In this document: positions 19,694 through 59,922 of the stretch, one piece after another
How the letters are laid out: each line of letters opens with the position of its first letter
Numbering within the stretch: the stretch's first letter is position 1
From: a bacterium
Lineage (GTDB): Bacteria; Patescibacteriota; Minisyncoccia; Phycocordibacterales; Phycocordibacteraceae
Assembly (NCBI GenBank): GCA_023269085.1
Contig: JAHFML010000002.1
Coordinates: forward strand, 65,266-129,265
DNA: 64,000 bases
Direction of reading: 5' to 3'
Position numbers and translations under genes: made by a program
The notes under the pieces: model-generated
Told to the model about the DNA's origin: nothing
Databases searched by the model: none
The model's input: the letters and a program-made list of their open reading frames with translations, nothing else

Positions 19694-20464
19694 ATGAATA
19701 TCGAAGAACTCTCAAAATCTCAGCTCATACTTCTCACCATCCTCGTGAACTTCGTCACGAGTGTTGCGACGGGTATCCTCACGGTCTCGCTCCTCGACCA
19801 TGCGCCGGCTCTGGTGACGCAGACGGTGAATAGAGTCGTTGAGCACACGATAGAGACCGTCTCACAGGTCGCACCGACGATCATCTCGTCGCCGGCACCA
19901 TCCAACCAAGATCTTGTGACCGCCGCGCTTGGTGTCGACGCGACACGGGTGGTCGCTATCTATTCTGCGACGGCGGGCACATCGACTCCGGCGATTGCCG
20001 TGGGCACCTTCATCCCGAAGTCGCGCATCGTCGTGACGGCCGCACAAGACGATCTCCCGAAGGAGGCGCATATCAAGTTCACGAGCGGCGTCACGCTCGC
20101 TGCCTCACTCTCGCGTCTCGGCAAAGGCATCGCCATCTACGGATTCTCGAATAATGCCAACCTGCCCAAAATGACCTCACCAGCTTTGGTCGCGTCAAGC
20201 GACTTGAAGCTCGGTCAGACTGCGCTCGCCATTGGCGCTGATGGTTCGGCCTCGACCGGCATCGTCTCGCGCACGAGCGAGAAGAGCGTCTCCACGACAC
20301 TTCCGAATGTCGGCGCGGGGAGCGCCGCCGTCGACCTCTCCGGTAATCTGATCGGCATCGCCGCCGGAGGCGAGACATCGGGACTCCTCATCAGCACCAA
20401 CATCATCACGGCGCTACTCACCGCGACTTCGACCGCGACCTCGACCGCCGCGAAGGCACCATAA
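19694..20464 (+). CDS. Hypothetical membrane-anchored Ala/Ser/Thr-rich protein (weak trypsin-like serine protease resemblance)
   Basis: N-terminal [23 protein letters not shown]; ...[18 protein letters not shown]... weakly resembles the S1 protease substrate-binding region; start moved to ATG 19694. Confidence 0.35.
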
Positions 20465-20468
20465 CGCT

Positions 20469-23168
20469 ATGCCTCCCTTCAACCACTTCACGACGAAAGC
20501 GAAGGAGGCGGTGCGCCGCGCGCACGAGCTCGCTATCGAGCGCGGACAGAACCATGTTTCGCCGCTCCACATGCTCGCCGCGCTCGTCTTGCAGGAGGAG
20601 TCGCTCGTCTTCTCGATGCTCGATCGCATGGAGATTGACACGACCTTGCTCGCCGATGCGGTCATCGAGCACCTCGAGACGCCCGAGAACTCCTCGGTGC
20701 TCTCGCCCTCCTACCAGATCTACCTCACGCCCGAGCTGACCCAAGCGCTCGAAGCGTCGGGTAAGATCGCCGCGCGCTTGAATGACACCTTCGTCGGGAC
20801 AGAGCACCTCTTCCTCGCGGTGCTCGAACATCCGGGACCGACGAGCGACATCTTCACGCAGTTCGCTATTCGCGAGGACACGGCGCTCGCGGTCTTGAAG
20901 GAGCTCAAGAATTCTAAAGACGGCGGGCGCGACGCCGAGCCGAAACGTTTCCGCGCGCTCGCGAAGTATGCGCGTAATCTCACCAAGCAGGCGGCCGAGA
21001 ACAAGCTCGATCCCGTCATCGGTCGTGATACGGAGATCAATCGCATTATTCAGATCCTCTCGCGCCGCACCAAGAACAACCCGATCCTCATCGGCGAAGC
21101 GGGCGTGGGCAAGACTGCCATTGCCGAAGGTCTCGCGCTCCGCATGGCGCAGGGCGACATGCCCGAGTCCTTGCGCGGCAAGGAGCTCCTCTCGCTCGAT
21201 CTCGGCCTCATGATCGCGGGGACGAAGTATCGCGGCGAGTTCGAAGAGCGCATGAAGAACGTGATGAAGGAAGTCGAGCGATCCGAGGGCAAGGTTATTC
21301 TCTTCGTCGACGAGCTCCACACGCTCGTGGGCGCTGGGAGCGCCGAGGGCTCGCTTGATGCGTCGAATATGCTGAAGCCCGCGCTCTCTCGCGGCGAGAT
21401 CCGCGTCATCGGCGCAACGACGACGAAGGAGTATCAGAAATATATCGAGAAGGACGCCGCACTCACGCGCCGCTTCCAGTCTGTTTTCGTACAAGAGCCG
21501 TCGATTGAAGATGGTATCGCTATCTTGCGCGGCCTGCGCGACAAGTATGAGCTCTTCCACGGGGTGCGGGTGACCGACGACGCTATTGTTGCGGCGGTTG
21601 AGCTATCATCGCGCTACATCAGCGATCGTTTCTTGCCCGACAAAGCGATCGATCTCATCGACGAAGCGGCGTCGGGCCTGCGTATCGCACTCGAGAACAA
21701 GCCGCCCTTGCTCGAAGAGACTGATCGGAAGGTTCGTCGGCTTGAGATCGAGCGCCAAGCATTGCAAAAAGACTTGGAAGGTGATCATGCCAAAGAGATT
21801 AAAGAACGCATCGCGATCATCGAGGCGAGCATCGCCGATTTGAAGGAGAAGACGCGCGAGCTCGAGCTCAAGTGGACGAACGAGAAGGAAGTCTTGCAGG
21901 GCATCCGCGCCGCGAAGACCGAGCTTGAGAAATTGAAGATCCAAGCTGACGCCGCTGAAGCCGCCGCTGACCTCGGCACCGTCGCCGAGATCCGCTATGG
22001 CAAGATCCCGCATATACAGAAGGATCTTGAGATAAAGCTCAAGCGCTTGAAGACGCTTCAGAAGTCGCGCCGCGTCTTGAACGAGGAGGTCACCGAGCAG
22101 GACATTGCGGCAGTCGTCTCGCGCTGGACCGGCATACCAGTCGCCCGGATGCTTGAAGAGGAGGCGGCGAAGCTCACCCGCATGGAGGAGGCTTTGAAGG
22201 GGAGCATCATCGGCCAAGACGTCGCGGTGAAGAAGGTGACCGATGCCGTGAAGCGATCGCGCGTTGGCATCAGCGACCCGAACCGCCCTATCGGCTCGTT
22301 CCTCTTCCTCGGGCCCACCGGCGTCGGCAAGACCGAACTCAGCAAGAAGCTCGCGGAGTTTATGTTCAACGATACTGAAGCGCTCGTCCGCATCGACATG
22401 AGCGAATTTATGGAGAAGCACTCGGTCGCGAAGCTTATCGGTGCGCCGCCGGGCTATGTCGGCTATGAGGAGGCGGGTACCTTGACCGAGCGCATCCGTC
22501 ATCGCCCGTATGCGGTGGTGCTCTTCGACGAGATAGAGAAGGCGCATCCGGAAGTCTTCAACATTCTGCTCCAAGTGCTCGACTCAGGGCACCTGACCGA
22601 CGGCAAAGGGCGCAAGGTCAACTTCAAGAACACTATTGTGGTGCTCACGAGCAACATCGGCGGCGAATTCATCGATAAGCTCGCGCATATCGGCTTCGGC
22701 ACCGCTCTCGCGACCGAGACGACTCGCTTTGAAGACACGAAGGAGAAGGTGATGGACGCGCTCCGCGAACACTTCCGGCCCGAGTTCCTCAATCGTCTCG
22801 ATGACATCATCATCTTCGACCCGCTCGCGAAGGAGGCGCTCGCGCGCATCGTCGACACGCAGGTCGCTGAGGTGGTCGCGCGTCTCGCGCACAAGCGGCT
22901 CGCGCTCACGATAGCGCCCGAGGTCCACGCGTGGCTCGCCGAGAAGGGCTACAATCCCGAGTACGGCGCACGGCCGCTCCGCCGCGCTATCCAAGACACT
23001 ATCCTCACGCCGCTCGCGACCTTGATGCTCGCACAGGGCATGCTCGAAGACGGCACCGTCTCGATCTCGATTAAAAATAATCAGCCGCACTTCGAGGTGA
23101 AGAAGAGCGCGCCGCGCACGCGCCGCGTAAGTGCGGTTCGCTCCGACCGAAGCGTCGGAGTTGCTTGA
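20469..23168 (+). CDS. clpB: ATP-dependent chaperone ClpB
   Basis: Clp N-domain repeats, Walker [11 protein letters not shown] and [10 protein letters not shown], long middle coiled coil ([18 protein letters not shown]...) diagnostic of ClpB vs ClpA. Confidence 0.9.
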
Positions 23169-23195: not shown

Positions 23196-23351
23196 ATGTC
23201 CCAAATTCGCCTTATCAAGCTCAAGTCGACGAAGTCGCCGCATGTCATCTGGACGCGCAAGAACAAGAAGACTGTCGAGCGCAAGATCGAGCTCACGAAG
23301 TTCGACCCGACGCTCCGCAAGCGCGTCACCTTCAAAGAGGCGAAGAAATAA
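23196..23351 (+). CDS. rpmG: 50S ribosomal protein L33
   Basis: Manual translation MSQIRLIKLKSTKSPHVIWTRKNKKTVERKIELTKFDPTLRKRVTFKEAKK, matching L33 (...[21 protein letters not shown]); too short for the ORF track. Confidence 0.8.
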   Translation: MSQIRLIKLKSTKSPHVIWTRKNKKTVERKIELTKFDPTLRKRVTFKEAKK

Positions 23352-23457
23352 TTTTTTGTGCTATTCTCAGCACAAGGGCCTATATCGAAACGCCGATATA
23401 TGCCCTCATTCGGCGAACAAGAATAATTGCAGACAATCATTCTTGTTGCCTCATTTC

Positions 23458-23528
23458 GGGCCTATAGTTTAGGGGTAGAACGGCGGTCTCCAAAACCGCT
23501 AGCCCAGGTTCGATTCCTGGTGGGCCCG
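23458..23528 (+). tRNA. tRNA-Trp (anticodon CCA)
   Basis: Acceptor GGGCCTA/TGGGCCC, anticodon loop CUCCAAA, T-arm CCAGGTTCGATTCCTGG; canonical position after rpmG. Confidence 0.9.
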
Positions 23529-23598
23529 CTAAAAAATTTGGGAAAAGAAGATTGGGGAAAAGCACGCGGCGCAGAGCGGCGCACGGTATACTGTTGCT

Positions 23599-24630
23599 AT
23601 GCATCGTCGTCTAGCTCTTCTCGCGCTCCTGCTTCTTGTGGGCTCTTTTGCTTTGCCGCACCTCGTGTACGCGGAAACGATACCGTTCTTCGGGCCAATT
23701 ATTCCCGATGCAAACAACCAATGCGCCGCCGGCTGGGGTATGCTTATCGTCGTCATAAACAACATTATCGAATTTGGGCTCACGATATTCATTATCTTCG
23801 TCATGCCGATTATGATTGCGTATTCCGGTTTTCTTTTCGTATGGAATCCGGTCAACTCGGGCGGGATCGCACAGGCGAAGAGCATCCTCACGAACTCTAT
23901 CGTCGGCCTCGTCATCGCGCTCGCGGCGTGGATGGTCGTCGACGCAGTCATGGCGGCACTCTACAACCCGAACGCGACGAGTACGACCAAAAATTGGGTC
24001 GACCTCATCACGCTCGGCGGCGCGCCGGACTGCATTATCCAGACTAGTGCACTCAATTCACTCGATCAGTCGAATCTGCAAGGAGGATCTGAAGTGACGG
24101 GCGTGAGTGCCGATGGCGGGAAGTTCCTCACCCTCCCGACGAACGGCGCGTGCACGGCTGATAATCTCAAGACTGCGGCACAGCAGGCGAACGTCTCTCT
24201 GACCCAAGCGCAGGCCGAAACGCTCTCCTGTCTCGCCGTGGCCGAGAGCACGTGCGGCACCAACACGAGTGTCGCAAGGCAGGCTAACGGCAAGCCAACA
24301 ACGGCAAATGGCATGTTCCAGATTATTCTCGGTCTTAATGACACCTGTCATAATCTAAACATTCCCGCATGCACGGCCGCGGCGCAAGCGGCGGGATACA
24401 AAAGCATAACCGGCAATCTCAACTGCTCGACAGCGTTCAGCGATGGTCTACCAAAAGCGAACATGCCGAATCTCGCCGCGGCATGCAAAGTGGCAGCAGC
24501 AGATCTCCCCTGCAATACTGCCGCCGCCGCATGTCTCATAAAAACAGGCGGTGGCAGTTATGGTGCGTGGACAGCCGATCCGCGAAGTGCAACACAGAAA
24601 AACTGCGTCACACGATATGCCGGAAAATAA
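23599..24630 (+). CDS. Fusion protein: VirB2/TrbC-type pilin-like N-terminus + C-terminal lytic transglycosylase (SLT/VirB1-like) domain, Cys-rich
   Basis: Signal peptide, two hydrophobic segments (GMLIVVINNIIEFGLTIFIIFVMPIMIAY; ILTNSIVGLVIALAAWMVVDAV), then SLT signature ...AVAESTCGTN...GKPTTANGMFQI... (E-S...G[LM][MF]Q) and ~14 Cys. Confidence 0.55.
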   Translation: MHRRLALLALLLLVGSFALPHLVYAETIPFFGPIIPDANNQCAAGWGMLIVVINNIIEFGLTIFIIFVMPIMIAYSGFLFVWNPVNSGGIAQAKSILTNSIVGLVIALAAWMVVDAVMAALYNPNATSTTKNWVDLITLGGAPDCIIQTSALNSLDQSNLQGGSEVTGVSADGGKFLTLPTNGACTADNLKTAAQQANVSLTQAQAETLSCLAVAESTCGTNTSVARQANGKPTTANGMFQIILGLNDTCHNLNIPACTAAAQAAGYKSITGNLNCSTAFSDGLPKANMPNLAAACKVAAADLPCNTAAAACLIKTGGGSYGAWTADPRSATQKNCVTRYAGK

Positions 24631-25261
24631 ACGACTCAATCTGAAGGGCTATCTCGTCATCAGTGCGGTGATTGTTCTCACGGTTGGTGTTGGTGTCCTT
24701 GTCTTCGTTGGCGCGACGAGCAATACCTCAACGACAGTTCCCACCGCGACCGGATTGCCGGTGGCAGGGCAGACACAACCGACGACTTCAGGATCACATG
24801 CTCAATCGGTGGCTCAAGGCTCGTTCGCCCCTGCGGCGGGAGGACAGACACAATCGGTATTGACGCTCGTTTCGCGCGCTGGCGGCACGATTGTAACTAA
24901 AGATTTCTTGCACAATGGCGAGACGGTTGCGGACGTGGTAAATCCAGGAACGTATGTGCTCGCGGGGAGTCTCGGCTATTGCACCGCGAGCGGTGTGTGC
25001 GGCGCGAATGCGTCAACGACTGATTTTTCGATTTCCTATGCGACGAGTACGCAATTCTTCAACATTATCCTTCTCGCCGAGCCGGTCGGCCTTGTGCGTT
25101 CCGCCGCCGAACGTTTTTTCCTTGCGCGTCTCGGCATTGGCGAACAAGCCGCTTGTGCGCTGAACTATTTTGTCGGTACACCCTACTGGGTCAACGAGTC
25201 GTACGATAACAAAAACCTCGGCTTCAGCTTCTGCCACGGTGCGACGGCTCTGCCGAAATAA
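24617..25261 (+). CDS. Hypothetical membrane-anchored secreted protein
   Basis: TM LVISAVIVLTVGVGVLVFV then Thr/Gly-rich and Cys-containing domain; start moved to ATG 24617. Confidence 0.4.
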   Translation: MPENKRLNLKGYLVISAVIVLTVGVGVLVFVGATSNTSTTVPTATGLPVAGQTQPTTSGSHAQSVAQGSFAPAAGGQTQSVLTLVSRAGGTIVTKDFLHNGETVADVVNPGTYVLAGSLGYCTASGVCGANASTTDFSISYATSTQFFNIILLAEPVGLVRSAAERFFLARLGIGEQAACALNYFVGTPYWVNESYDNKNLGFSFCHGATALPK

Positions 25262-26186
25262 ACTTGGACATCGGATGTCCAAGTTTGCGCAACCACGCCT
25301 TCTGGCGGCGAGCGTAGTGCCAGAGTCGGGCCGAGAGAATTGGGAGAAGGGAAGCTTCGTCGCGCTCATTGCGGAGGTACCCGCCAATGATGCGATACTC
25401 GAGCCCGAGCTCGGCGAGCCGCGCGTCGCCGACCTGCTCGCGGACGCGAGCGACCTCGTCGATAAGGCCGCGATCGAGCGCGCTCGCGAGCCGTGCGTCG
25501 ATGCGCGCGCGGAGCTCTTCTCGCGGCGGATCAATCACGATCCACTTCGAGCGATAGCGAGATCCCGAGTCTGTCGAGGGACGATTGCGGCGCGGGACAG
25601 AGCCAAGCGCGTCGATTATCTCGAGAGCGCGGATGAGTCGACGACGGTTGAGCGGGTCGAGCTCGGCGGCGCGACGTGCGTCGGCACGCTGCACCCGCGC
25701 ATACAGCTCTTCGGTCGGGAGCTGTTCGAGCTCGGCGCGAAGGCTCGGATTCGCGTCGACGCTGGCGGGGAGCCCGTGCAGAAGCGCATCAAAATAAAAA
25801 TGCGTCCCGCCCGCGAGGATCGGCAATTTGCCGCGGCTCGTTATCTCTTTGATAAGTCGCGTCGCGTCCTGCACGAAGTCGCCCGCAGAATAGGCATCGC
25901 TCGCGTCACGAATGTCGATAAGGTGGTGTTGCACCCCCTGCATCTCTTCGAGCGTAATCTTCTCGGTGCCGATATCGAGGCCGCGATATACCTGCCGCGA
26001 GTCGACCGAGATTATCTCGCCACCTCGCGCGAGCGCCTCCTGCACCGCGCGCGATGACTTGCCTGAAGCGGTCGGGCCCGCTATGCAGAGGATCCGTTCG
26101 CCAGCAGACTGGCTCAGGACGTCGCTTCGCTCCGTTTGTGCTGTCATTGGGGGCGATGGTATCATATATTGCATACGATTACTCAT
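25224..26186 (-). CDS. miaA: tRNA dimethylallyltransferase
   Basis: P-loop GPTASGKS, DSRQVYRGLDIGT, GGTHFYF; C-terminal tail carries a palindrome. Confidence 0.85.
   Translation of the reverse strand: MSNRMQYMIPSPPMTAQTERSDVLSQSAGERILCIAGPTASGKSSRAVQEALARGGEIISVDSRQVYRGLDIGTEKITLEEMQGVQHHLIDIRDASDAYSAGDFVQDATRLIKEITSRGKLPILAGGTHFYFDALLHGLPASVDANPSLRAELEQLPTEELYARVQRADARRAAELDPLNRRRLIRALEIIDALGSVPRRNRPSTDSGSRYRSKWIVIDPPREELRARIDARLASALDRGLIDEVARVREQVGDARLAELGLEYRIIGGYLRNERDEASLLPILSARLWHYARRQKAWLRKLGHPMSKFISAEPSHRGRS
25260..25286. repeat. Palindrome family C-related 27-nt perfect palindrome AAACTTGGACATCGGATGTCCAAGTTT
   Basis: Sits exactly at convergent gene ends: overlaps TAA of 24617..25261 and the last codons of miaA (encodes ...LGHPMSKF...). 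Confidence 0.8.
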
Positions 26187-28570: not shown

Positions 28571-29125
28571 ATGAGCAAGAAATACGCGAGCCTCGAAGAG
28601 AGGCTAGATGCATGGAGTGTAGAAAGGGACAACGGTTTTTGTTCTCCATGCAGAATCTGGATGGGATACGCTCAAAATGGCGCTCCGATGCCGAGAGGGA
28701 AAGAGGGCGGGTATCCAAGAATCAACATGCGGTACAGGGCTTCTGGAGAGGAAAAAGCGAAGTCACGCAAGTATCCCGCATATTGGGTCAGACGAGTTCT
28801 TTATGAAATATCAAAAATTGTTCCAGATTTTGATTCCAATAACCCGCAACATATGGAATCGTTCTGGGATCTCCTGTACGCTTATCGGTCGCTCGGCTTG
28901 ACCATCGAGCATGTTTGCAAGCACACTCTCTGTATAAACCCATTGCATTTAGATTGGGTGCCAATGGCTGAAAATAATGGCAGGAAGAGATGGTCAGAGG
29001 TGCGCAGGAGGAGCAGGATAGAGTCGAATCATAATGGCGTTGGTAGACACGCCGCTCTTATTCGAAACTCCGCGGGAGTGAAGGAATTTATCGAAAAAAT
29101 AAAGAAGAGCCGGCATTTAAAATAA
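28571..29125 (+). CDS. HNH endonuclease (HNH_3-type, homing-endonuclease-like) in a low-GC islet
   Basis: LTIEHVCKHTLCINPLHLDWVPMAEN; strong SD AAAGAGGTG 8 nt upstream; local GC clearly below genome average. Confidence 0.6.
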   Translation: MSKKYASLEERLDAWSVERDNGFCSPCRIWMGYAQNGAPMPRGKEGGYPRINMRYRASGEEKAKSRKYPAYWVRRVLYEISKIVPDFDSNNPQHMESFWDLLYAYRSLGLTIEHVCKHTLCINPLHLDWVPMAENNGRKRWSEVRRRSRIESNHNGVGRHAALIRNSAGVKEFIEKIKKSRHLK

Positions 29126-39576: not shown

Positions 39577-40271
39577 ACGGCGACTCATTCCGTATCGCGC
39601 TCGCGGGAGTCGCGCTCGTCGTCGCGGCGGGCGGCGTGTATCTCAAATATGAAGACATGAAGCCCTGCGTGCATCCGCTGCCCTACGCTATCGGGGCGGT
39701 CGATGCGCGCTTTGACACGACCGCGGCGACAGTCGAGCGAGAAGCCCTCGCTGCCGCGACAATCTGGAACACGGCAGAGGGGAAGCCACTCCTCGCCTAT
39801 GACACTCACGCCGCGCTCAAGATCAATCTCATCTACGACGAACGCGAGGCGAGCGCCAAGCAGGGAGAAGACATCGCGCGCGCTCAAGCCGCGCTCGAGA
39901 GCGAGCGAGCGATGATAGAGGCAGAGCGCACAGCAGGCAATGTGTCCCCGAACACCTTCAACGCGCAGGTCGCGAGCTATAACGCGAGCATCGCCTCGCT
40001 GAACGCGCGCGTGAGCGACTACAACAAGAGCGCCGGTCACGACTTCAAAGAAGGCGAGTATATCCAAGACGCGTCGGGCAAGCGCATCAACGTCTACGAA
40101 TTCATCGGCACCAATCAGCTCGAACGCGTCCTCGCGCACGAGCTCGGTCACGCCCTCGGCCTCGATCACAACAGCGACCCCGCCTCGATCATGTACGCCG
40201 AGAACGAGAGCGGCAACCTCGTCCCCACTACTGCCGACCTCGCCGCGCTCCGCGCCCTCTGCGGGTCGTAA
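39573..40271 (+). CDS. Membrane-anchored zinc metalloprotease, matrixin (M10)-like
   Basis: HELGHALGLDHNSDPASIMY = HExxHxxGxxH + Met-turn; N-terminal TM; ATGA overlap with dnaX. Confidence 0.7.
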   Translation: MNGDSFRIALAGVALVVAAGGVYLKYEDMKPCVHPLPYAIGAVDARFDTTAATVEREALAAATIWNTAEGKPLLAYDTHAALKINLIYDEREASAKQGEDIARAQAALESERAMIEAERTAGNVSPNTFNAQVASYNASIASLNARVSDYNKSAGHDFKEGEYIQDASGKRINVYEFIGTNQLERVLAHELGHALGLDHNSDPASIMYAENESGNLVPTTADLAALRALCGS

Positions 40272-40339
40272 TCTGGAGATATCAACATACGAACAAATAG
40301 ATGTAGGCTATAGATTTCATGTCGTGCTAGTATAGTTTT

Positions 40340-41041
40340 GTGTTAGCTTTACCGAAAGAAAAAGCGCGTGCCGTACAGCTTCGCAAACAAGGTAAAACCT
40401 ATGGAGAAATTGCAAAGCAAATTCTGGTTTCTAAATCAACGCTTTCTCTTTGGTTGCGAGATGTTGAAGTGTCAGCAGAGTTTCTCTCTCGTATCCGACA
40501 AAAGAAATTAGATGCGGTCAAGAAGGGTTGGGAGGCGCGCAGGAAGGAGCGTATCGATCGAACGAAGCAGATTACTGATGCGGCACGAGAAGAAGTCTCG
40601 AAATTTTATAAACAGCCACTCTGGCTCGTTGGCGTAACTCTTTACTGGGCTGAAGGACATAAAGAAAAATCTTGGCGTCCGGGGGCACTCGTGACTTTCA
40701 CCAACATGGACGAAAATACGATAATTATCTTCAGAAATTGGTGTCGTAAATATATGGATGTCTCGGACGGTGATTTTGTTTACAGCCTCTATGTTCATGC
40801 TACTCACGAAATGCGGACGTTAGAAATAAAACAATGGTGGGCACGCAAACTCTCAATAAACCCTGATAGCATCGCCGTTTATTACAAGAAACATACAACA
40901 AAACACGTGCGTCATAATGACGACGATAACTATCATGGGGTTTGTCGTGTTCGTGTGAGGAAGAGTGTGGATATGAATCGGAGAATTGCTAGTTGGACAT
41001 CCGAAATGGTACGTTCACTGGAGGACAAAAATAAGCTATGA
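40340..41041 (+). CDS. Hypothetical HTH-domain protein (low-GC islet; possible homing-endonuclease-like)
   Basis: N-terminal HTH (TYGEIAKQILVSKSTLSLWLRD); ...LWLVGVTLYWAEGHK... faintly LAGLIDADG-like; clearly lower GC. Confidence 0.4.
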   Translation: MLALPKEKARAVQLRKQGKTYGEIAKQILVSKSTLSLWLRDVEVSAEFLSRIRQKKLDAVKKGWEARRKERIDRTKQITDAAREEVSKFYKQPLWLVGVTLYWAEGHKEKSWRPGALVTFTNMDENTIIIFRNWCRKYMDVSDGDFVYSLYVHATHEMRTLEIKQWWARKLSINPDSIAVYYKKHTTKHVRHNDDDNYHGVCRVRVRKSVDMNRRIASWTSEMVRSLEDKNKL

Positions 41042-41063
41042 TAGAGCCACTCGTGCTCACCGC

Positions 41064-41134
41064 TGGGGGATCGTCTAATGGTAGGACGACGGGTTTTGGT
41101 CCCGTTAATTTAGGTCCGAGTCCTAATCCCCCAG
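41064..41134 (+). tRNA. tRNA-Gln-like (anticodon TTG), atypical
   Basis: Manual fold: acceptor TGGGGGA/TCCCCCA with G73 (U1:A72/G73 as in E. coli tRNA-Gln), 3-bp D-stem, anticodon loop UUUUGGU, T-arm TTAGG-TCCGAGT-CCTAA; an alternative 8-9 bp acceptor register exists. Confidence 0.55.
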
Positions 41135-41260
41135 CAGTGTGCAGGAGACTCTAGGATCGTTCCCTAGCTCCCCAGCAAAGTCGTGCGAGGTTATCTCGCA
41201 CAAGACGCGTCAAATGGATGAGTTACTCAGAATATTGATATATGAGTTAGAATAAGCCCA

Positions 41261-42229
41261 ATGGAACAATTTTCTCATGCGCAAAAAGAATCTGGAATAA
41301 ACCGAGTTGTCGGATTCGATGCAGGACAGGAGAAAAAATTCTTACAGTATTTCAAAGATAAGTTTGAAACCAGATCTCCTGATTCAGGAGATAAAGAAAA
41401 AACATCCGAACAAGTGGCGCTGATTGACCGCACCAATAAGGAGATGCGAGATTTCTTGGCACGGTACAATATCAATGCCGTTGAGATCCCGGCGGATAAT
41501 GTTCATATACTCGATCGGTCGAAACTTACGCAAGAAGAACTTCGAGAGATTCAAAAAAGATTTGGCACTGAGAGTGGATTCTACTCAGCCTTTAAGCAAG
41601 GCGTCGCGATTATGAAAGATTACGATGTAAGCAAATTGTCGTTTCTGCAAACTCTTGTCCACGAGTCGCTCCATCTTCAGGGATTTTATTCGTATCAAAA
41701 GAGTTCTCGAGAGACTGCCGATTTTAGCGTGAAAAACGAAGATAACTCGGCAAGTTTGAACATCCGACGATCAGGATTCTCTATCGGCACAAAAGATGGT
41801 AAAAGACGGCTCTTCCATGAGATTAATGAATCTATTATCACGGAGCTACAAATTCGATTCGAGAACGCATACCTCGCGCAGTGGCCAGAGCTGAAAGAAG
41901 AATTAAAAGCTCGCGATGCCTGTATCGAACGAGTCGCAAAACGAGACAACGCACCAATAGAAGAAATACGGAAGGTTGTAGCGAGTTTCTCTGGATACGC
42001 ATGGGTAACCTATCCCTATAACGACGAGCGCCAGGAGTTTAATTCTCTGGTCGATGAGTTGTATACGAGAAACCAATCAGATTTTGAATCGCGAGAAGAT
42101 GTCTTTAATTTATTTGTTGAAGCAACAATGAATGGTCGTCTTCTCCCTGTCGCACGACTCATTGAGAAGACATTCGGTAAGGGAACATTTAGGACAATTG
42201 GTGTGAACAGTGCGAATAAGCACGACTAG
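41261..42229 (+). CDS. Hypothetical protein (low-GC islet; contains HESLH motif)
   Basis: ORF 322 aa; LVHESLHLQG could be an HExxH zinc site but no further support. Confidence 0.4.
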   Translation: MEQFSHAQKESGINRVVGFDAGQEKKFLQYFKDKFETRSPDSGDKEKTSEQVALIDRTNKEMRDFLARYNINAVEIPADNVHILDRSKLTQEELREIQKRFGTESGFYSAFKQGVAIMKDYDVSKLSFLQTLVHESLHLQGFYSYQKSSRETADFSVKNEDNSASLNIRRSGFSIGTKDGKRRLFHEINESIITELQIRFENAYLAQWPELKEELKARDACIERVAKRDNAPIEEIRKVVASFSGYAWVTYPYNDERQEFNSLVDELYTRNQSDFESREDVFNLFVEATMNGRLLPVARLIEKTFGKGTFRTIGVNSANKHD

Positions 42230-42327
42230 ACAATTCGATCGAACCTGAAGATAAGACCGTTTTCCACAGGTGGGAGGAAAAATGCGTACGGTACACTATG
42301 TTTATTGTTAGCTAGTAATTTTAACCT

Positions 42328-47731: not shown

Positions 47732-48202
47732 TTGAGAAAATTCATAGCCAGCATTTCGTTGATAAGTACTGCTGCTTTTACGCTCGCCATCATCTTGCAA
47801 ATCGTATTGAACGACAGCAAGGTGGGACAGAGTACGGAAGCAAGAACAGCAATACATTTCAATGAACTCGCGTCGGTTCCGGTGACCGATATTCTTTTGC
47901 CGAAGCCGACATCATCGCGGGTCGTTGTTGCCTCGTGGTATGGCGAAGCCTTCCAAGGTAAGCCGATGGCGAATGGCGAGCCGTTCGACATGGACGAGCT
48001 CACCATCGCACATAAGACCTTGCCACTTGGAACACGGGTTCGTATCGAGAATCCGGAGAACGGGAGGGAAGTCATCGCGATTGTCACCGACCGCGGGCCG
48101 TATATCGACGGGCGGGAGATCGACTTGTCGAGACGATGCGCGAAGATGCTCGGCCTCTTGCGGCGGGGAACAGGCCTCGTCGAATTTGAGGTTTTGGCGT
48201 AA
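47732..48202 (+). CDS. RlpA-like double-psi beta-barrel (DPBB) lytic transglycosylase-like lipoprotein
   Basis: ASWYGEAFQGKPMANGEPFDMDELTIAHKTLPLGTRVRIEN...IVTDRGPY RlpA signature. Confidence 0.75.
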   Translation: MRKFIASISLISTAAFTLAIILQIVLNDSKVGQSTEARTAIHFNELASVPVTDILLPKPTSSRVVVASWYGEAFQGKPMANGEPFDMDELTIAHKTLPLGTRVRIENPENGREVIAIVTDRGPYIDGREIDLSRRCAKMLGLLRRGTGLVEFEVLA

Positions 48203-48266: not shown

Positions 48267-48313
48267 ATATTCGATACTTGTGCGCTTCGCGAGTGTGCTA
48301 TCATACGGCGCAT

Positions 48314-49042
48314 ATGGAAAATAATAATGAAATGAGCAACAAGTTCTTCTTGCCGGGTGCGGTCGTGGTCGCGGGGCTCCTTATCGCCGGAGCGGTGGTC
48401 TGGAGCAACGCGCATCCGACGGCGGCGACTTCTGGCGGTCAGCCCGCCGCGCCGAAGGTGAATATCAAAGATATCAAGATGGACGGCGACCCATTCATCG
48501 GCAAGGCTGATGCGCCGGTCACCATCGCCTTCTGGAGCGACTTCCAGTGTCCGTACTGCAAGGCGGCAGAGGTTGGCGGCGTCCCGCAGATCAATCTCGC
48601 GGCCGCATTCCCCGATGTCGTGAAGAATTATGTCGACACTGGCAAGGCGAAGGTCGTCTTCATGGACTTCATCTTCCTCGGTAACGACTCCATCGCGGCA
48701 GGCCTCTACAATCGCGCCGTGTGGAAGCTCTATCCGGATCAGTACTTCGCATGGCGCACCGCGATGTACACCGCACAAGACGAGGAGGGCGATAAGGGCT
48801 TCGGTAATGCCGCCTCGATCGACAAGCTCGACGCTACGATCGCTGGTCTTGATGCCGCGAAGATCGCAGAGGACGTGAAGGCGAACACGACCGTCTACCA
48901 GGCCATGCTCGACGCCGACAAGGCCGAAGCCTCGAAGCTCGGCATCAATGCGACGCCATCGTTCGTCATCGGCACCAAGCTTCTCCAAGGCGCATATCCC
49001 TTTGACGCTTTCAAGGCGGCGATTGATCCGCTCCTGAAGTAG
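48314..49042 (+). CDS. DsbA-family thiol:disulfide oxidoreductase (membrane-anchored)
   Basis: Thioredoxin-fold active site FQCPYCK; N-terminal TM; start moved to ATG 48314 (ORF track TTG 48278). Confidence 0.75.
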   Translation: MENNNEMSNKFFLPGAVVVAGLLIAGAVVWSNAHPTAATSGGQPAAPKVNIKDIKMDGDPFIGKADAPVTIAFWSDFQCPYCKAAEVGGVPQINLAAAFPDVVKNYVDTGKAKVVFMDFIFLGNDSIAAGLYNRAVWKLYPDQYFAWRTAMYTAQDEEGDKGFGNAASIDKLDATIAGLDAAKIAEDVKANTTVYQAMLDADKAEASKLGINATPSFVIGTKLLQGAYPFDAFKAAIDPLLK

Positions 49043-52571: not shown

Positions 52572-55328
52572 ATGGAGAATCTGCCGCGGCTATCGACGCC
52601 TGAAGATGAACTCGCGTATCTGCGAGCGAAGGTCGCCGAGCAGGAGGCGGCGCTCACGCAAGCGGGGGGCGCGCCCGAGCGCGCGCAGATTATTAGCGAG
52701 CACGTGAGCGCGCATCACGCCGCGCCGCGCGAGATACTCGCGCCCGAATATCAGATGAGCGCGGCGACCGCGACGAGCGAAGCCGAGGCAATCCTAGCCG
52801 AGCTCGATCTCGGCGGGAGCGAGGCGGCGGTGCGGAGCCTCGAGAAGACGATGGACGAAAAGGGCATCAAGAACGCACTCGCTATCCTCGAGCGAACCGG
52901 CGATCCGCATCTCGCCGACGACTTTCATCGCTTCCTGGTGCGCTATATCGCCGCCGGCCTGCCAGTCTTGGGTGCTGACGAGAAGGCGCCGCGCTGGCGC
53001 GCACTCCACATGACGCTTTATGAAATCGCGCTCCAGGGGCCAAAGGCGGGCGAGGACGCACGCAAGCCCTTGAAGGAGCTTATCTCGAGCATGGAACAGC
53101 TCTATGCCGGCATGCTCTCGGTCGAGACGGCGACGTCGGGCGAGCCGCAGTACATCGCGCTCGAGCTCGCGGTGCCGGCTGATAGCCCTGAGCTCCAGTT
53201 CTATGCCGCCGTGCCGAACAGTAAGCGCAATCTCTTTGAGAAGCAGCTCCTCGCCATCTTCCCCGATGCGCACCTTGTCCCGCAGATGGCCGACTATAAC
53301 ATCTTCGCCGAGGGCGGGACGGCGCTTGTCTCAGTTGCGAAGCAGGCCGAGCGCCCTGCACTCCCGCTGAAGGACTACAGCGACTTCGACTATGACCCGA
53401 TAAATACGGTGATGAACGCTTTTGCGAAGATTGAGCATAAAGGCGAAGGCGCGGCGCTCCAGATTATCATCGAGCCAAGGGGCGAGCAGTATGTGAAGCA
53501 CTATCGCAAGATCTTGCAGGCCTTGCGCAAGGGTGTGCGCAAGGGTGAAGCATTCGGCATTGCAGAGACCGCCGTCGGCGAAGTCTTCCAAGACCTCGGT
53601 AAAAAACTCTTCTCGGATAGTTCAAAAGATAAAGAGAAGGAGAAGGAGGCCGAGGCGCGCGGTGCCGAAGCGAACAAGTCGACTATCGAACAAGTCGAGA
53701 AGAAGATCGCCGCTCCTGTCGTCGCGGCGACCATCCGCCTCGCCGCCTCCTCGCGCAATGCAAATGTCGCGAGTCAAGTGCTCGGCGATCTCGAGGCGTC
53801 GTTCAACCAATTTTCAAATACGCAGGGGAATCGCCTTGAGTTCACCCGCACTGATGCAAAGCATAGCGCGCGCGAGCTTGAAGATTTCTCCTTTCGTTTG
53901 CCCGCAGACAAAACGCTCCCGCTCTCGCTTCGTGAGCTCACGACGCTCTACCACTTCCCGCCGTCCGGCATTATGAGCTCGCCCCATTTGAAGCAGTCGC
54001 GCTTCACCCACGCACCCGCGCCGCTCGCGCTCCCCGCGGCGGGGAATCTTCTCGGTATCAATTCGTATCGCGGCGCGACTACCGAGATCCGCCTCGCGCC
54101 TGAAGACCGTCTCCGCCATCTCTACATCATCGGCCAGACCGGCACCGGTAAGACCGGTCTCATGAAGAGCATGATTATTCAAGATATTAAGAATGGCGAG
54201 GGTTGCTGCTATATCGACCCGCACGGCTCCGACATCCTTGATGTGCTCGCGGCCGTCCCGCCCGAGCGGTATAAGGATGTGATTTATTTCGACCCGGCCG
54301 ATCTCTCGCGCCCCTTCGGGCTCAACTTCCTCGAGTACGACTTCTCGCGCCCCGAGCAGAAGACCTTCATCGTGAACGAGCTCCTCATGATATTCCGTCG
54401 GCTCTATGGCGACGTGCCCGAGAGCATGGGCCCCGCATTCGAACAATACTTCCGCAATGCGACGCAGCTCGTGATGGAGGATCCCTCGAGCGGCTCGACG
54501 ATGATGGATATCGCGCGCGTCTTCACCGATAGCGAGTTCCGCAAGCAGAAGCTCGCCAAGAGCATGAACCCTATCATCAACCAGTTCTGGCAGGAGATAG
54601 CGACCAAGGCCGGTGGCGACGCGTCGCTCGAGAACATCGTCCCCTATATCACCAACAAGTTCGACGACTTCACTGCGAACGACTTCATCCGCCCGATCGT
54701 CGGCCAGCAAGAATCCTCCTTCAAGTTCCGCGAGGTGATGGACTCGAAGAAGATACTGCTCGTCAATCTCTCGAAGGGGCGTTTGGGCGAGCGGAACGCG
54801 AACCTGCTCGGTCTTGTCATCGTAGGCAAGCTCTTCATGGCGGCCTTGTCGCGCGCCGATAACCCTCGCGCCGCCTTCGCGCCCTTCTATCTCTACATCG
54901 ACGAATTCCAAAATGTCACCACCGACTCTATCCCCGGCATTCTCTCGGAGGCGCGCAAGTATAAGCTCTCCCTCGCGATGGCGCACCAATTTTTGAATCA
55001 GATAGAAGAGAAGACGCGCAGCGCGGTCTTCGGCAACGTCGGCAACATGGCGATATTCCGCGTCGGCGAGGAGGACGCGGAGTTCTTCGCGAAGCAATTC
55101 GCGCCGGTCTTCGAGCCGCTCGACTTCGTAAATATCGAGAATAGAAATGCCTATGTGAAGATTCTCACGGGCGGCGTGCCGCAGAAGCCCTTCGACATGA
55201 AGACGCCCGACCTGCCGCAGGGGAGCCCCGAGCAGGTTGATGATCTCATCCACCTCTCCAGCCTGACCTATGGCCGCGACCGTGCTACTATTGAGACCAT
55301 GATTCGCGAACGATATTTATCTCACTAA
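52572..55328 (+). CDS. Large P-loop NTPase of the FtsK/HerA/VirD4-TrwB (T4SS coupling/VirB4-like) type
   Basis: Walker A HLYIIGQTGTGKTGLM (cf. TrwB GATGTGKS), Walker B FYLYIDEFQN, LAMAHQ; ~470-aa soluble N-terminal domain without TM; 918 aa. Confidence 0.65.
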   Translation: MENLPRLSTPEDELAYLRAKVAEQEAALTQAGGAPERAQIISEHVSAHHAAPREILAPEYQMSAATATSEAEAILAELDLGGSEAAVRSLEKTMDEKGIKNALAILERTGDPHLADDFHRFLVRYIAAGLPVLGADEKAPRWRALHMTLYEIALQGPKAGEDARKPLKELISSMEQLYAGMLSVETATSGEPQYIALELAVPADSPELQFYAAVPNSKRNLFEKQLLAIFPDAHLVPQMADYNIFAEGGTALVSVAKQAERPALPLKDYSDFDYDPINTVMNAFAKIEHKGEGAALQIIIEPRGEQYVKHYRKILQALRKGVRKGEAFGIAETAVGEVFQDLGKKLFSDSSKDKEKEKEAEARGAEANKSTIEQVEKKIAAPVVAATIRLAASSRNANVASQVLGDLEASFNQFSNTQGNRLEFTRTDAKHSARELEDFSFRLPADKTLPLSLRELTTLYHFPPSGIMSSPHLKQSRFTHAPAPLALPAAGNLLGINSYRGATTEIRLAPEDRLRHLYIIGQTGTGKTGLMKSMIIQDIKNGEGCCYIDPHGSDILDVLAAVPPERYKDVIYFDPADLSRPFGLNFLEYDFSRPEQKTFIVNELLMIFRRLYGDVPESMGPAFEQYFRNATQLVMEDPSSGSTMMDIARVFTDSEFRKQKLAKSMNPIINQFWQEIATKAGGDASLENIVPYITNKFDDFTANDFIRPIVGQQESSFKFREVMDSKKILLVNLSKGRLGERNANLLGLVIVGKLFMAALSRADNPRAAFAPFYLYIDEFQNVTTDSIPGILSEARKYKLSLAMAHQFLNQIEEKTRSAVFGNVGNMAIFRVGEEDAEFFAKQFAPVFEPLDFVNIENRNAYVKILTGGVPQKPFDMKTPDLPQGSPEQVDDLIHLSSLTYGRDRATIETMIRERYLSH

Positions 55329-55331
55329 AAT

Positions 55332-57209
55332 ATGCCTGAAAAACCGCCAAGAACAAAGACGCCAATCGAAGAAACGATTGCACAAGTTGAAGAAGAGAAC
55401 GAAGTTATGTTTCCTCCGGCAGAAGGCGTACCGACACGGGCAGAGAGTCAAGCGGCGCTTATCGAAGCTGTGAATAAATTCCCGAAGGCAGAAGTGTCGA
55501 CGGAAACGGCCACACCGAAAGTGGAGAAGCCAGAGAGCGTGTTCGACACCGAGCGCATGAAGGAGTACATGAGTCAGCGCAATGGCGCACTGGATCAGAA
55601 AGCAGAGAAGCTCGGGATCGGAGGATTCGTGCGCTCGATCGGAGAGAAATACAATAAAATAAATTGGAAATATAAGCTCCTCGCGGGTATCGGTCTTGGC
55701 GTTACAACCGCGGTAACGGCATTCCCTGCGGCTATTACCGCGTGTGCCGTCGGACTTATAGCCGCGCAACGCGCTCTTGGTGCGACGGGCATGTTCGTAA
55801 AGTTTGAGAAGAATCTTAAGGATATCGACAAAGGGGAAGCAGAAGGATTCTTCAAAGGCCGTCTGCTCGGAAAAGAAGGTTGGTATCAAAAGGCGATTAA
55901 AAATATGGAGTTGTCAGAAGAAGGGCAGCGCAACATGGCTATTGGCATGACGCTTGCCTATACTGTTGGCATGAGTGCTGCGATTGGCGGGGCGGTCGAG
56001 TACGCACGAGATCACGGTTGGGTAGAGTGGATCAGCAATCATTTGCCGTCAATGGATGCTCACGCTGCCGGAACGTCTGCGGCTCCGGCTACCGCACCAG
56101 CACCAGAGGCCGCCACACCGGCACCAGAAGCGGCAGTATCAGCACCAGAAGTGAAAGTCGAGATGCCGAGTGTCGCGGCGTCGGCAAGACACGGATATGA
56201 GTACATGATGAAGCGGATGTGGGAGGACTTGCATGACCCCGCGAAGCACTTTGTCGCGCCGAAGGACATCAATCCTGACAGTGATCTCGCCAAGCTTCTC
56301 GCCGCGAAGCCAGAAGAGATAGACGGCCTCGTGCACCGAATTGCGGCAGACTCGCACCATCACTTCTTCCACGCGAACGGCGAGAATGTCCTCATTGATC
56401 CGAAGGCGCATATGACGTTCGGTGATCATGGAGAGTTGCATCTCGCGACCGAGAAGTATGACTACACCTTCGCGCCTGACCATGCACCGACGACGCCCGC
56501 GTATCATCCTCATGTTGCCGCCGCACCGGCACCAGAGAATGTACAGTCGGTCGTCTTCACTCACGAGACGCCGCCACCGACGACCTATGAAGAGGCGTAT
56601 AACAACGCAATCGATAATGCACCGCATCTACCCCACGTGTCAGCCGAGCAGGTGCAAGGGTCGGCGTCTGCCTACGACCCCAAAGCTCCCGATGCGTGGA
56701 TGCACATCAATGATCCCGGCAAAGGCATGGACCCGTTCCGGGTAGAAGACTATCCAGCGAATCATGTGCCCGGAGCCGGCGCGCATCCGGTCGAGGTTGC
56801 GCATGCACCCACGCCGCATCTCTCAGAACATATTGCTGTGAACGGCTCGGGCGTCGAGATCAATATCAGTGAGCCGCATATCTACGCGAGCCACGCGGCT
56901 GGAAGTGTTGCTCCTGTTCCGGGTCAAGGCATTGATGTGATGAACATGCCGACAGCACAACCAGAGCGTCTCTTCGTCTACGGCGGTGATCCGGCAGGGC
57001 GCGCCGAGACGATTGCTCAATATCTCTCACAGCATCACGACAAGATTGTATACGCGGCAGACTCTAATAACGAGCACCGCATTCCTTGGCATTGGGCCGA
57101 TGGAAAAGTCGTGCCAGGGACGCCGGTGCGCACGAGCGGCTTCCTCGGTTTCTTCGCATCCTTTATGAAGGCACCAACTCCTGACGAACTCGGGAAACTT
57201 ATAAAATAA
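55332..57209 (+). CDS. Hypothetical large membrane protein (2-3 TM, long Ala/Pro/His-rich C-terminal domain)
   Basis: TM helices around ...LLAGIGLGVTTAVTAFPAAITACAVGLIAA... and ...MAIGMTLAYTVGMSAAIGGAV...; no known domain. Confidence 0.5.
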   Translation: MPEKPPRTKTPIEETIAQVEEENEVMFPPAEGVPTRAESQAALIEAVNKFPKAEVSTETATPKVEKPESVFDTERMKEYMSQRNGALDQKAEKLGIGGFVRSIGEKYNKINWKYKLLAGIGLGVTTAVTAFPAAITACAVGLIAAQRALGATGMFVKFEKNLKDIDKGEAEGFFKGRLLGKEGWYQKAIKNMELSEEGQRNMAIGMTLAYTVGMSAAIGGAVEYARDHGWVEWISNHLPSMDAHAAGTSAAPATAPAPEAATPAPEAAVSAPEVKVEMPSVAASARHGYEYMMKRMWEDLHDPAKHFVAPKDINPDSDLAKLLAAKPEEIDGLVHRIAADSHHHFFHANGENVLIDPKAHMTFGDHGELHLATEKYDYTFAPDHAPTTPAYHPHVAAAPAPENVQSVVFTHETPPPTTYEEAYNNAIDNAPHLPHVSAEQVQGSASAYDPKAPDAWMHINDPGKGMDPFRVEDYPANHVPGAGAHPVEVAHAPTPHLSEHIAVNGSGVEINISEPHIYASHAAGSVAPVPGQGIDVMNMPTAQPERLFVYGGDPAGRAETIAQYLSQHHDKIVYAADSNNEHRIPWHWADGKVVPGTPVRTSGFLGFFASFMKAPTPDELGKLIK

Positions 57210-58869: not shown

Positions 58870-59922
58870 ATGATGATTTCTGCACGAGAACAAAAAATAC
58901 TCGCCTTGCTTGGTAGCCGCGACTCGGCGCAGTCTTCGGCTATACGCGATGCGCTCGTCGCGCGGGGTGATGACGCGTCGCTTGTTACGGTCAAGCGGGC
59001 GCTCTCTGCCATGGTCGCGCGCGGTCTGCTCGTCGCGACCGGCTCAGGCCGATCCTCGGCGTATCAGATCGCTAGCGTCGGCCGCATCTTCGCCAGTATC
59101 GATGCTCGCGCTTATTGTGCGATTGATCCTGATCGCCGGGCCGGTTTGCAGGGATATAATCGTGCGCTCTTCGCCCTGATGCCCGAGGATCTTTTTTCTG
59201 ACAAGGAGCAAGCGTCGTTCGCGCTCGCGACGACAGAATATGCGCGCCGATCTCTGAATGTGCCGAGAGCGATAGCGAAGAAGGAGCTCGAACGGCTCGT
59301 GGTCGAACTCTCATGGAAGTCGTCAAAGATAGAAGGCAACACCTATACGCTTCTCGACACGGAGCGCCTCATCCTCGAGAACAAAGAAGCGGTCGGACAT
59401 TCTCGGAGCGAGGCCCAGATGATACTCAATCACAAAGACGCTTTCGCTTTCGTGCGGGAGAATGCACCCTCCTTCCTCTCGGTGTCGCGGGCGCGTATCG
59501 AAGATCTGCACGCGATCTTGATACGAGACTTAGGCGTGGGGACTGGCCTGCGCACGCGCGCGGTCGGGATCACGGGGTCGGTCTATCAGCCGCTCGATAA
59601 TCAGCATCAGATCCGCGAAGGGTTTGACGCGCTCATAGCCGCCATCGGTCGCGCGCATACGCCGTATGATAAGGCGCTTCTCGCCATACTGGGCATAAGC
59701 TATCTCCAGCCGTTTGAAGACGGCAACAAGCGCACAGCGCGCCTCCTCGCTGACGCGCTTCTGCTCGCGCACGGGTGCGCGCCGCTCTCGTATAGGAGCG
59801 TCGAAGAAGAAGAGTATCGCGAAGCCCTGCTGGTATTCTACGAGATGAATTCGATTGCCCCGTTCAAGAAGATATTTATCGAGCAGTACGATTTCGCAGC
59901 GCGTAATTATACGGTCGCATGA
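58870..59922 (+). CDS. Fic/Doc-family protein with N-terminal winged-HTH; motif variant QPFEDGNKRTAR
   Basis: Fic core ...YLQPFEDGNKRTARLLADALL...; the canonical catalytic His of HPFx[DE]GN[GK]R is Gln here. Confidence 0.7.
   Translation: MMISAREQKILALLGSRDSAQSSAIRDALVARGDDASLVTVKRALSAMVARGLLVATGSGRSSAYQIASVGRIFASIDARAYCAIDPDRRAGLQGYNRALFALMPEDLFSDKEQASFALATTEYARRSLNVPRAIAKKELERLVVELSWKSSKIEGNTYTLLDTERLILENKEAVGHSRSEAQMILNHKDAFAFVRENAPSFLSVSRARIEDLHAILIRDLGVGTGLRTRAVGITGSVYQPLDNQHQIREGFDALIAAIGRAHTPYDKALLAILGISYLQPFEDGNKRTARLLADALLLAHGCAPLSYRSVEEEEYREALLVFYEMNSIAPFKKIFIEQYDFAARNYTVA

Follow-up and report, generated by a model that had tools for sequence, protein, structure and literature searches.

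A VirB2-like pilin module with interchangeable predicted wall-hydrolase domains in a fixed genomic slot of Patescibacteria

Background

What is encoded by a gene that joins a pilin-like membrane module to a lysozyme-like domain, and why does it lie among housekeeping genes? The question is raised by a 343-aa open reading frame (ORF) in a 64,000-nt stretch of the genome of an ultrasmall bacterium of the Phycocordibacteraceae (GCA_023269085.1, contig JAHFML010000002.1, positions 65,266-129,265 of the forward strand), hereafter the window, to whose positions all coordinates refer. A preliminary description of this DNA had seen in the ORF a pilin-like anchor fused to a VirB1-like peptidoglycan hydrolase, located where secE-nusG would be expected. 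That observation is confirmed here in part, and its interpretation is supported in part. The fusion combines known parts in a variant that is widespread and uncharacterised. What is new is that the same pilin module, itself conserved, bears predicted wall hydrolases that vary from species to species, and that the lysozyme type forms, together with a partner gene, a cassette in a fixed genomic slot.

Patescibacteria (Candidate Phyla Radiation, CPR) account for a large share of bacterial diversity, and the cultivated ones live attached to other microbes. Their type IV secretion system (T4SS) is of the monoderm type with VirB2-like pilins (PMC12102498). It was essential in the one species tested, its function has been described as completely unknown, and reviews regard the pilins as unique among monoderm systems (PMC11665869; PMC12857230). 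A survey that covered 3,035 genomes reports 1,948 assemblies with VirB2-like pilins, most of them without a recognisable VirB1, and concludes that pilus formation apparently does without a wall hydrolase; pilin-hydrolase fusions are not mentioned there (PMC12102498). This conclusion is qualified by the finding that the pilin module itself carries a predicted wall hydrolase in a large Kaiserbacteria/Paceibacterota clade. The fusion links a pilin physically to a predicted wall-cutting activity, and provides a lead, which can be tested, on the way these bacteria get through cell walls.

Our literature search on PF18896, SLT_3 and pilin-hydrolase fusions in CPR found no description of the fusion or of the partner family, here called A3. 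Since the accessions PF18895 and PF18896 are consecutive and co-occur on database proteins, the architecture is implicit in the databases and apparently uncharacterised.

Results

The fusion gene and its relatives

The 343-aa ORF is a real gene and not a chance ORF. It is backed by homologues and is also called as a gene on public contigs. Its product has 135 homologues (90% clusters) at E<=1e-3, the best non-identical one at 4.7e-184, and a profile built from 50 homologues matches, among clusters of 50% identity, 374 at E<=1e-30 and 3,226 at E<=1e-10. All named homologues belong to Patescibacteria (Parcubacteria, Paceibacterota, Kaiserbacteria). The gene, its parts and the partner gene are arranged as follows.

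23599-24630, + strand: fusion gene, pilin module joined to lysozyme-like domain, 343 aa plus stop (ORF, homologues, AlphaFold2 (AF2) model)
23599-23673, + strand: signal peptide, aa 1-25 (MHRR, hydrophobic run, predicted cleavage VYA/ET)
23674-24048, + strand: VirB2-like T4SS pilin module, aa 26-150 (IPFFGPIIP, Cys42, helix 46-82, NPVNSGG, helix 87-122, Trp133, Cys145)
24049-24144, + strand: variable low-confidence linker, aa 151-182 (predicted local distance difference test score (pLDDT) 46-60; columns poorly conserved)
24145-24627, + strand: Cys-rich lysozyme-like domain, aa 183-343 (candidate catalytic Glu216, codon 24244-24246; GMFQI, aa 238-242)
24617-25261, + strand: partner gene, A3 family, 214 aa, overlapping the fusion gene by 14 nt

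A scan of the fusion protein and its partner against NCBIfam gave nothing useful, a promoter and terminator scan around the fusion gene gave no signal above background, and tblastn found no second copy of the pilin module or of the lysozyme-like domain in the window.

Swappable hydrolase domains on one pilin module

Matches that cover the first 40-70% of the query have a pilin module 55-65% identical to that of the window protein, followed by different C-terminal domains. These comprise SLT (PF01464, up to 4e-25), VanY (4e-13), Lysozyme_like and some domains without a Pfam match; many of the latter, judged by eye, have an H..G..VD / HxH signature, as LAS metallopeptidases do. For the comparison of loci, the pilin-module alignment was scanned against species-representative genomes, which yielded 80 loci from Kaiserbacteria/Paceibacterota, annotated by hidden Markov models (HMMs), phmmer and ARAGORN. 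The non-lysozyme-type genes in these 80 genomes include 6 SLT, 5 VanY and 4 Lysozyme_like fusions, all in the same slot. On a neighbour-joining (NJ) tree of MiaA the domain class switches about 21 times, a rough and noisy estimate. Identities to the window protein can also be discordant between its two parts: in locus L003 the pilin module is 32% and the lysozyme domain 58% identical, in L007 the values are 60% and 36%.

The partner gene of the lysozyme type

In the A3 protein a basic N-terminus and a transmembrane anchor are joined by a Thr/Ser/Pro-rich linker to an alpha/beta domain, which lies outside the cytoplasm and has four conserved Cys. The basic N-terminus, the transmembrane segment and these Cys place it in the same compartment as the enzyme. 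Among the 74 complete loci, 36 possess both the lysozyme domain and A3, and 35 neither; A3 occurs without the lysozyme domain in two (one a masked assembly gap, the other a tandem duplication) and the lysozyme domain without A3 in one (Fisher p=2.9e-17 for the table, a statistic that ignores phylogenetic non-independence). Because the domain class changes so often on the rough MiaA tree, the association does not stem from a single clade.

A mirror-tree test was made on 21 loci with distance matrices for the lysozyme domain, A3, the pilin module and MiaA. Lysozyme domain and A3 correlate with r=0.79, and with a partial r=0.75 given MiaA and the pilin module (permutation p about 5e-4). The correlation of the lysozyme domain with its own pilin module is r=0.35, and with MiaA r=0.31. 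Mean pairwise distances are 0.60 for the lysozyme domain, 0.58 for A3, 0.43 for the pilin module and 0.31 for MiaA. These results support a shared history of lysozyme domain and A3, which co-evolve as a unit. The fold of A3 gave no match to known lysozyme inhibitors.

The tandem duplication, one of the three exceptions to the rule, lies at L053:4438-7571 on the complete Kaiserbacteria chromosome OY969413.1. It consists of a pilin::LAS-like peptidase gene, a partner-family gene, a pilin::divergent lysozyme-like gene and a partner-family fragment, and looks like a recombination intermediate.

Identity of the pilin module

A signal-peptide-like N-terminus and two hydrophobic segments had been read from the ORF beforehand, and both are borne out by the sequence, by the hydrophobicity plot (Kyte-Doolittle centres at aa 55-74 and 104-114) and by the AF2 helices at 2-23, 46-82 and 87-122, the long pair being joined by NPVNSGG. 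The window protein thereby shows the signal peptide and two-helix hydrophobic hairpin of VirB2-like pilins. The model has a mean pLDDT of 82; the C-terminal domain is compact with values >90, and the linker segments 149-157 and 159-164 are <50. Around the signal cleavage the family consensus reads AHA, an AxA-type site, followed by an almost invariant IPFFGPIIP; cleavage in the window protein would fall after VYA. Other near-invariant residues of the module are NN.I, AYSGFLFVVNP, GW.IVDA.MA.LYNP, W133 and C42/C145. The lower mean distance of the module compared with the lysozyme domain indicates tighter constraint, and its identity remains at 55-60% in proteins with a wholly different C-terminal domain. 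Because it is so strongly conserved the module is taken to be more than an anchor.

The fusion protein contains 12 cysteines (not about 14, as counted previously), two in the pilin module and ten in the lysozyme domain. Cys42 and Cys145 flank the hairpin on its extracytoplasmic side, are invariant even where the C-terminal domain differs, and probably form a stapling disulfide.

PF18895 (T4SS_pilin) matches 35 of 50 full-length homologues, the best at 1.2e-12. Homologue P0038 (41% identity over 95% of the query) has a precomputed PF18895 match, and P0082 and P0085 have both PF18895 and PF18896 in their precomputed annotation. The window protein on its own scores below the curated Pfam thresholds of 26.6 bits for PF18895 and 27 bits for PF18896 (SLT_3), so it is the whole family, backed by the structure model, that carries the domain assignments. 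A type IV pilus pilin was ruled out by the ordinary signal peptide and two helices, where a class III leader and only one N-terminal helix would be expected.

The architecture is more varied elsewhere in the family. As seen among P0238, P0257, P0265 and P0273, some members of 540-724 aa carry a long N-terminal extension with repeated Ig-like-looking segments before the pilin module and lysozyme domain, and others have an 'LVPC..C..C' type pilin N-terminus.

The lysozyme-like domain and its active site

The C-terminal domain possesses the motifs AES (Glu216-Ser217) and GMFQI (238-242). Its hydrolase assignment had been made to depend beforehand on a conserved catalytic Glu, and this residue proved to be conserved. 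Glu216 is invariant in the 50-sequence alignment and kept in 189 of 200 homologues having the lysozyme-like domain. In the same set, S217 is present in 178, G238 in 197 and Q241 in 193 sequences, and the combination of E-S with G-x-[FLM]-Q is conserved across homologues. Searched against PDB sequences, the family profile has its best matches among C-type lysozymes (6ukc at 5.9e-4, followed by those of mouse and human). The profile alignment equates C211-x4-E216-S217 with Cys30...Glu35-Ser36, and T-A236-x-G238-x-F-Q241-I with S-T-Asp52-Y-G-I-F-Q-I. Of the two carboxylates of glycoside hydrolase family 22 (GH22) only the Glu has an equivalent: position 236, which corresponds to Asp52, is Ala in 174 and Ser in 23 of the 200 homologues, and acidic in none.

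PF18896 matches 15 of 50 homologues (best 1.2e-8) and 12 of 40 in a second set. PF01464 does not match the window protein and matches two of 50 homologues weakly (6e-4), and no AYNxG third motif is visible after GMFQI in the window protein sequence. The earlier designation as an SLT-type domain is supported at the level of the family by the PF18896 matches; the window protein taken alone stays below the SLT_3 threshold. The domain has the lysozyme fold of the SLT_3/lysozyme-like superfamily. In the comparison table of the lysozyme-like domain the following values are listed.

Bombyx lysozyme, 7.5
Cj0843c lytic transglycosylase, 7.1
Bdellovibrio DslA, 7.0
MltE, 6.3
MltC, 6.3
Slt70, 5.9
goose-type lysozyme, 5.8

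As judged from the sequence, the domain is a predicted lysozyme-superfamily glycosidase with one candidate catalytic carboxylate. Because the position of the second carboxylate is occupied by Ala or Ser, its mechanism would be nearer to that of lytic transglycosylases and goose-type lysozymes than to that of GH22.

Two genes elsewhere in the window touch on this domain. A DsbA-like membrane-anchored thioredoxin with a CPYC motif is encoded at 48278-49042 (Thioredoxin_4, 6e-25) and is in keeping with the numerous extracytoplasmic disulfides predicted for the fusion protein and A3; its presence makes disulfide formation in the fusion protein plausible. The adjoining gene at 47732-48202 encodes an RlpA-like DPBB_1 'lytic transglycolase' protein (1.5e-18).

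The genomic slot and the question of secE-nusG

The genes that bound the slot in the window are listed below.

20469-23168, + strand: clpB, 899 aa (Pfam AAA_2 1.7e-68, ClpB_D2-small, Clp_N)
23196-23351, + strand: rpmG, ribosomal protein L33, 51 aa (Pfam PF00471 Ribosomal_L33 4e-10; TIGR01023 3e-12)
23458-23529, + strand: tRNA-Trp(CCA), directly upstream of the pilin gene (ARAGORN)
25224-26186, - strand: miaA, tRNA isopentenyltransferase, convergent (Pfam IPPT on the called gene), the fixed downstream boundary of the slot

Beyond miaA follow, in order, genes for peroxiredoxin (Prx), tRNA-Leu, ParB, RelA/SpoT, TopA and DprA. The previously described succession of rpmG, tRNA-Trp and the 343-aa ORF is found as such, all on the + strand. 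In all 80 of the species-representative genomes retrieved, a pilin-module gene occupies the slot between ClpB-L33-tRNA-Trp and miaA, and the near-universal order is ClpB-L33-(0 to ~5 kb of inserted genes)-tRNA-Trp-pilin gene-miaA(-)-Prx-tRNA-Leu-ParB. ClpB precedes L33 in 56 of the 60 relatives whose fetched stretch includes L33, MiaA lies downstream of the pilin gene in 74 of 80, and in five relatives of 38-59% identity the neighbourhood is as in the window. In 75 relatives the tRNA-Trp gene is located at a median of 150 nt upstream of the pilin gene; 70 have it on the opposite strand and five on the same one, so the window represents the minority state.

The preliminary description had the fusion gene standing instead of secE-nusG at a conserved position, and named a tiny secE missed directly downstream as a finding that would speak against this. 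Neither is borne out. The spaces between rpmG, tRNA-Trp and the fusion gene measure 106 and 69 nt, and the gene that follows overlaps the fusion gene by 14 nt, which leaves no room for a tiny secE; SecE (PF00584) was ruled out for the downstream ORF 24617-25261, which has no Pfam family. By tblastn with E. coli and B. subtilis queries NusG, L11 and L1 are absent from the 64-kb window (the SecE query being too short and divergent to inform), and neither NusG nor L11 was found in 93 related loci by tblastn and phmmer. L33, tRNA-Trp and pilin gene form the standard layout of the clade. In the sequence covered, the window and stretches of up to 10 kb on either side, we see no sign that secE-nusG has been replaced in this genome; the pattern is a fixed clade trait. 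Location and fusion had both been called unusual before. The location is ordinary for the lineage, as the slot holds a pilin-module gene in every genome sampled, and the fusion is not rare: both Pfam domains are precomputed on P0082 and P0085, and several homologues already bear the NCBI name 'pilin'.

The changing orientation of tRNA-Trp, together with the 0 to ~5 kb of unrelated genes after rpmG (L014-L093), marks a small rearrangement hotspot in an otherwise rigid synteny. A prophage endolysin or holin-endolysin fusion was ruled out by the housekeeping synteny across 80 species and by the lack of phage genes nearby.

Discussion

Comparison with known systems

Like the PF18895 VirB2-like pilins of Patescibacteria (PMC12102498), the fusion protein has a predicted cleavable signal peptide, two hydrophobic helices and a short loop. 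Its link to VirB2/TrbC-type pilins is supported by the family-level HMM matches, and the lineage is shared. Typical VirB2-like pilins are small, stand-alone and often arranged in tandem arrays near virB4. The fusion, in contrast, has an extension of ~190 residues made up of linker and enzyme, occurs in a single copy in a housekeeping slot and matches PF18895 below threshold. With VirB1-type hydrolases, including TraG of pIP501 and PrgK of pCF10, which are membrane-anchored and Gram-positive (PMC12102498), it shares a predicted glycosidase domain of the lysozyme superfamily, a single candidate catalytic Glu in E-S, the GxxQ motif, a membrane tether with the enzyme outside and a presumed local wall-opening role. 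It differs from them in its anchor, a pilin hairpin instead of a single N-terminal transmembrane helix, in lying outside a T4SS gene cluster, in being of the Cys-rich SLT_3 type and not PF01464, and in the lack of a second CHAP or LytM domain. From C-type GH22 lysozymes, such as those of insects and mammals (PDB 6ukc, 1ivm, 1gd6), the domain departs by Ala or Ser at the Asp52 position, ten cysteines and not eight, extra C-terminal helices and a bacterial origin; because of these differences it is not a GH22 member in the mechanistic sense. The locus also resembles polymorphic toxin and effector-immunity cassettes, with a conserved N-terminal module, interchangeable enzymatic C-termini and a co-varying downstream gene. 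Unlike such cassettes, it has a partner for only one domain type and no orphan cassettes or arrays, and inhibition by the partner is putative.

A wall enzyme on a pilin anchor

On balance we think it probable that the fusion is a membrane-anchored extracytoplasmic predicted peptidoglycan glycosidase on a VirB2-like pilin anchor, with a cognate partner. The pre-protein would be exported by Sec and would lose its signal peptide after VYA. The two long helices would insert as a hairpin with both ends outside and the NPVNSGG loop in the cytoplasm, a VirB2/TrbC topology derived from sequence and model, and Cys42 and Cys145, both outside, probably staple the ends of the hairpin. A flexible linker of ~30 residues would keep the disulfide-rich lysozyme-like domain in the wall compartment, where it is predicted to cut bonds between N-acetylmuramic acid and N-acetylglucosamine (MurNAc-GlcNAc) with Glu216 as sole general acid. 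The pilin module most likely docks the enzyme to the T4SS/pilus apparatus or builds it into that apparatus, which would confine wall cutting to that place. A3, whose co-variation with the lysozyme domain is observed, would be the cognate partner, most likely a regulator or inhibitor that guards the wall of the producer.

Several points weigh against this reading. The window protein matches PF18895 with 16.2 bits (E 0.011) and PF18896 with 19.9 bits (E 0.001, residues 198-242), both short of the thresholds. The gene is not adjacent to virB4, virB6 or virB3; its neighbours within 10 kb to each side are ClpB, L33, miaA, Prx, ParB, RelA and TopA, much as in relatives, and the nearest and sole T4SS-like ATPase of the window (TraG-D_C/DUF87, 52572-55328) is 28 kb off. 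The noise of the switch count and the phylogenetic non-independence ignored by the co-occurrence statistic count on the same side. In the SLT, VanY/LAS and other fusions of the slot there is no downstream gene before miaA, and the general logic of an inhibitor or immunity protein is weakened by these partnerless hydrolase fusions. Finally, a VirB2-type filament would hardly accommodate a globular extension of ~190 residues on each of its subunits.

Own wall or host wall

Cell-wall remodelling for filament assembly, the VirB1-like role proposed in the preliminary description, is plausible. The swapped hydrolase and the co-evolving partner suggest an effector-like role at least as strongly. The swapping of hydrolase classes as such is compatible with either, since an opening of the own wall could be served by any bond-cutter, and a host-directed warhead would go with an immunity partner. 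If the protein were such a host-directed effector, which we regard as possible but rather unlikely, the pilin module would polymerise into or cap the T4SS pilus and present interchangeable hydrolase warheads to the peptidoglycan of host or prey, with the partner as immunity protein. This would account for a conserved N-terminal module followed by a variable enzymatic C-terminus (lysozyme, SLT, VanY/LAS-like and domains without assignment) in one slot, for the frequent switches of domain class against the flanking miaA, for the fast and correlated evolution of lysozyme domain and A3 relative to MiaA, and for the discordant identities in L003 and L007. Reviews mention a proposal that lytic transglycosylases of Patescibacteria compromise host envelopes, and describe the role of the T4SS as unknown (PMC11665869; PMC12857230). 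An effector function is at odds with the other fusions, in which the pilin gene abuts miaA and leaves no place in the slot for a candidate immunity gene, with the single such gene per genome in most loci and the lack of warhead arrays or orphan cassettes, and with the housekeeping neighbourhood far from T4SS genes; the polymerisation of the pilin is itself an assumption of this explanation. In its fullest form, for which our expectation is equally low, the module would be a true pilus or stalk subunit of the patescibacterial T4SS and a scaffold for interchangeable hydrolase warheads against the host wall, and A3 a membrane-anchored immunity protein of new fold for the lysozyme type. If true, this would amount to a pilin-borne polymorphic effector system and a mechanism by which epibionts open the envelope of their host.

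Two further explanations do without an enzyme fixed to a pilus. The fusion could be a pro-protein whose linker is cut, so that a lysozyme is secreted in soluble form and a normal mature pilin stays behind, the joint reading frame serving for co-expression and co-export only. The disordered and poorly conserved linker speaks for it, as does the conserved block LYNP...W133...C145, common to all fusions, with which the module ends; the C-terminal trimming of the RP4 TrbC-type propilin offers an analogy. Since no conserved cleavage motif is visible in the linker of the 50-homologue alignment, no dedicated TraF-like protease gene lies in the slot, and short stand-alone versions of the module are rare among the top matches, which mostly measure 290-360 aa, we consider such processing improbable. 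A housekeeping autolysin, whose hairpin has become a plain membrane anchor and no longer acts as a pilin, and which works on the producer's own wall during growth and division with no link to secretion or pili, would agree with the fixed place among ClpB, L33, miaA, Prx and ParB in every relative, with the distance from T4SS genes and with the scarcity of other wall hydrolases, the RlpA-like DPBB protein being the only other one in the window. A passive anchor, however, needs no near-invariant residues along both helices and their extracytoplasmic flanks, and the many switches between glycosidase and peptidase classes among close relatives are unexpected for a housekeeping enzyme, so that this last possibility appears highly unlikely.

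Other features of the window

The T4SS-like ATPase is a protein of 918 aa with matches to TraG-D_C (4.5e-6) and a DUF87/HerA-type domain (8e-5), and is directly followed by a 625-aa Pro/Ala-rich membrane protein without Pfam family (52572-57209 for the pair). The two are candidate T4SS components that may resemble coupling proteins or VirB4, and no solved structure is related in sequence to the ATPase.

Between ParB and RelA/SpoT, a 184-aa ORF (28571-29125) without Pfam family shows an HNH-like Cys/His pattern (CKHTLCINPLHLDWV...N). RelA directly follows ParB in L002, L003 and L005, and is likewise the next called gene in L007 and L011, with gaps of 15 nt and ~120 nt; the ORF looks like an inserted selfish endonuclease gene. 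The stretch 40001-42300 has a G+C content of 0.46, compared with about 0.58 elsewhere, and contains tRNA-Gln (41064-41135) and a 322-aa ORF without Pfam family (41261-42229). It may be a small island integrated beside tRNA-Gln.

A gene of ~250 aa at 19694-20464, without Pfam family, is always located between a cysteine desulfurase-like aminotransferase and ClpB, in the window as in relatives. A 309-aa version that starts with TTG at 19535 gives a weak Trypsin_2 match (E 0.0013); the gene may encode a membrane-anchored serine protease. A Fic/DOC-domain protein (58870-59922, 8.7e-13) with an N-terminal winged-helix-like region is encoded directly upstream of the tRNA-guanine transglycosylase gene (59919-61214).

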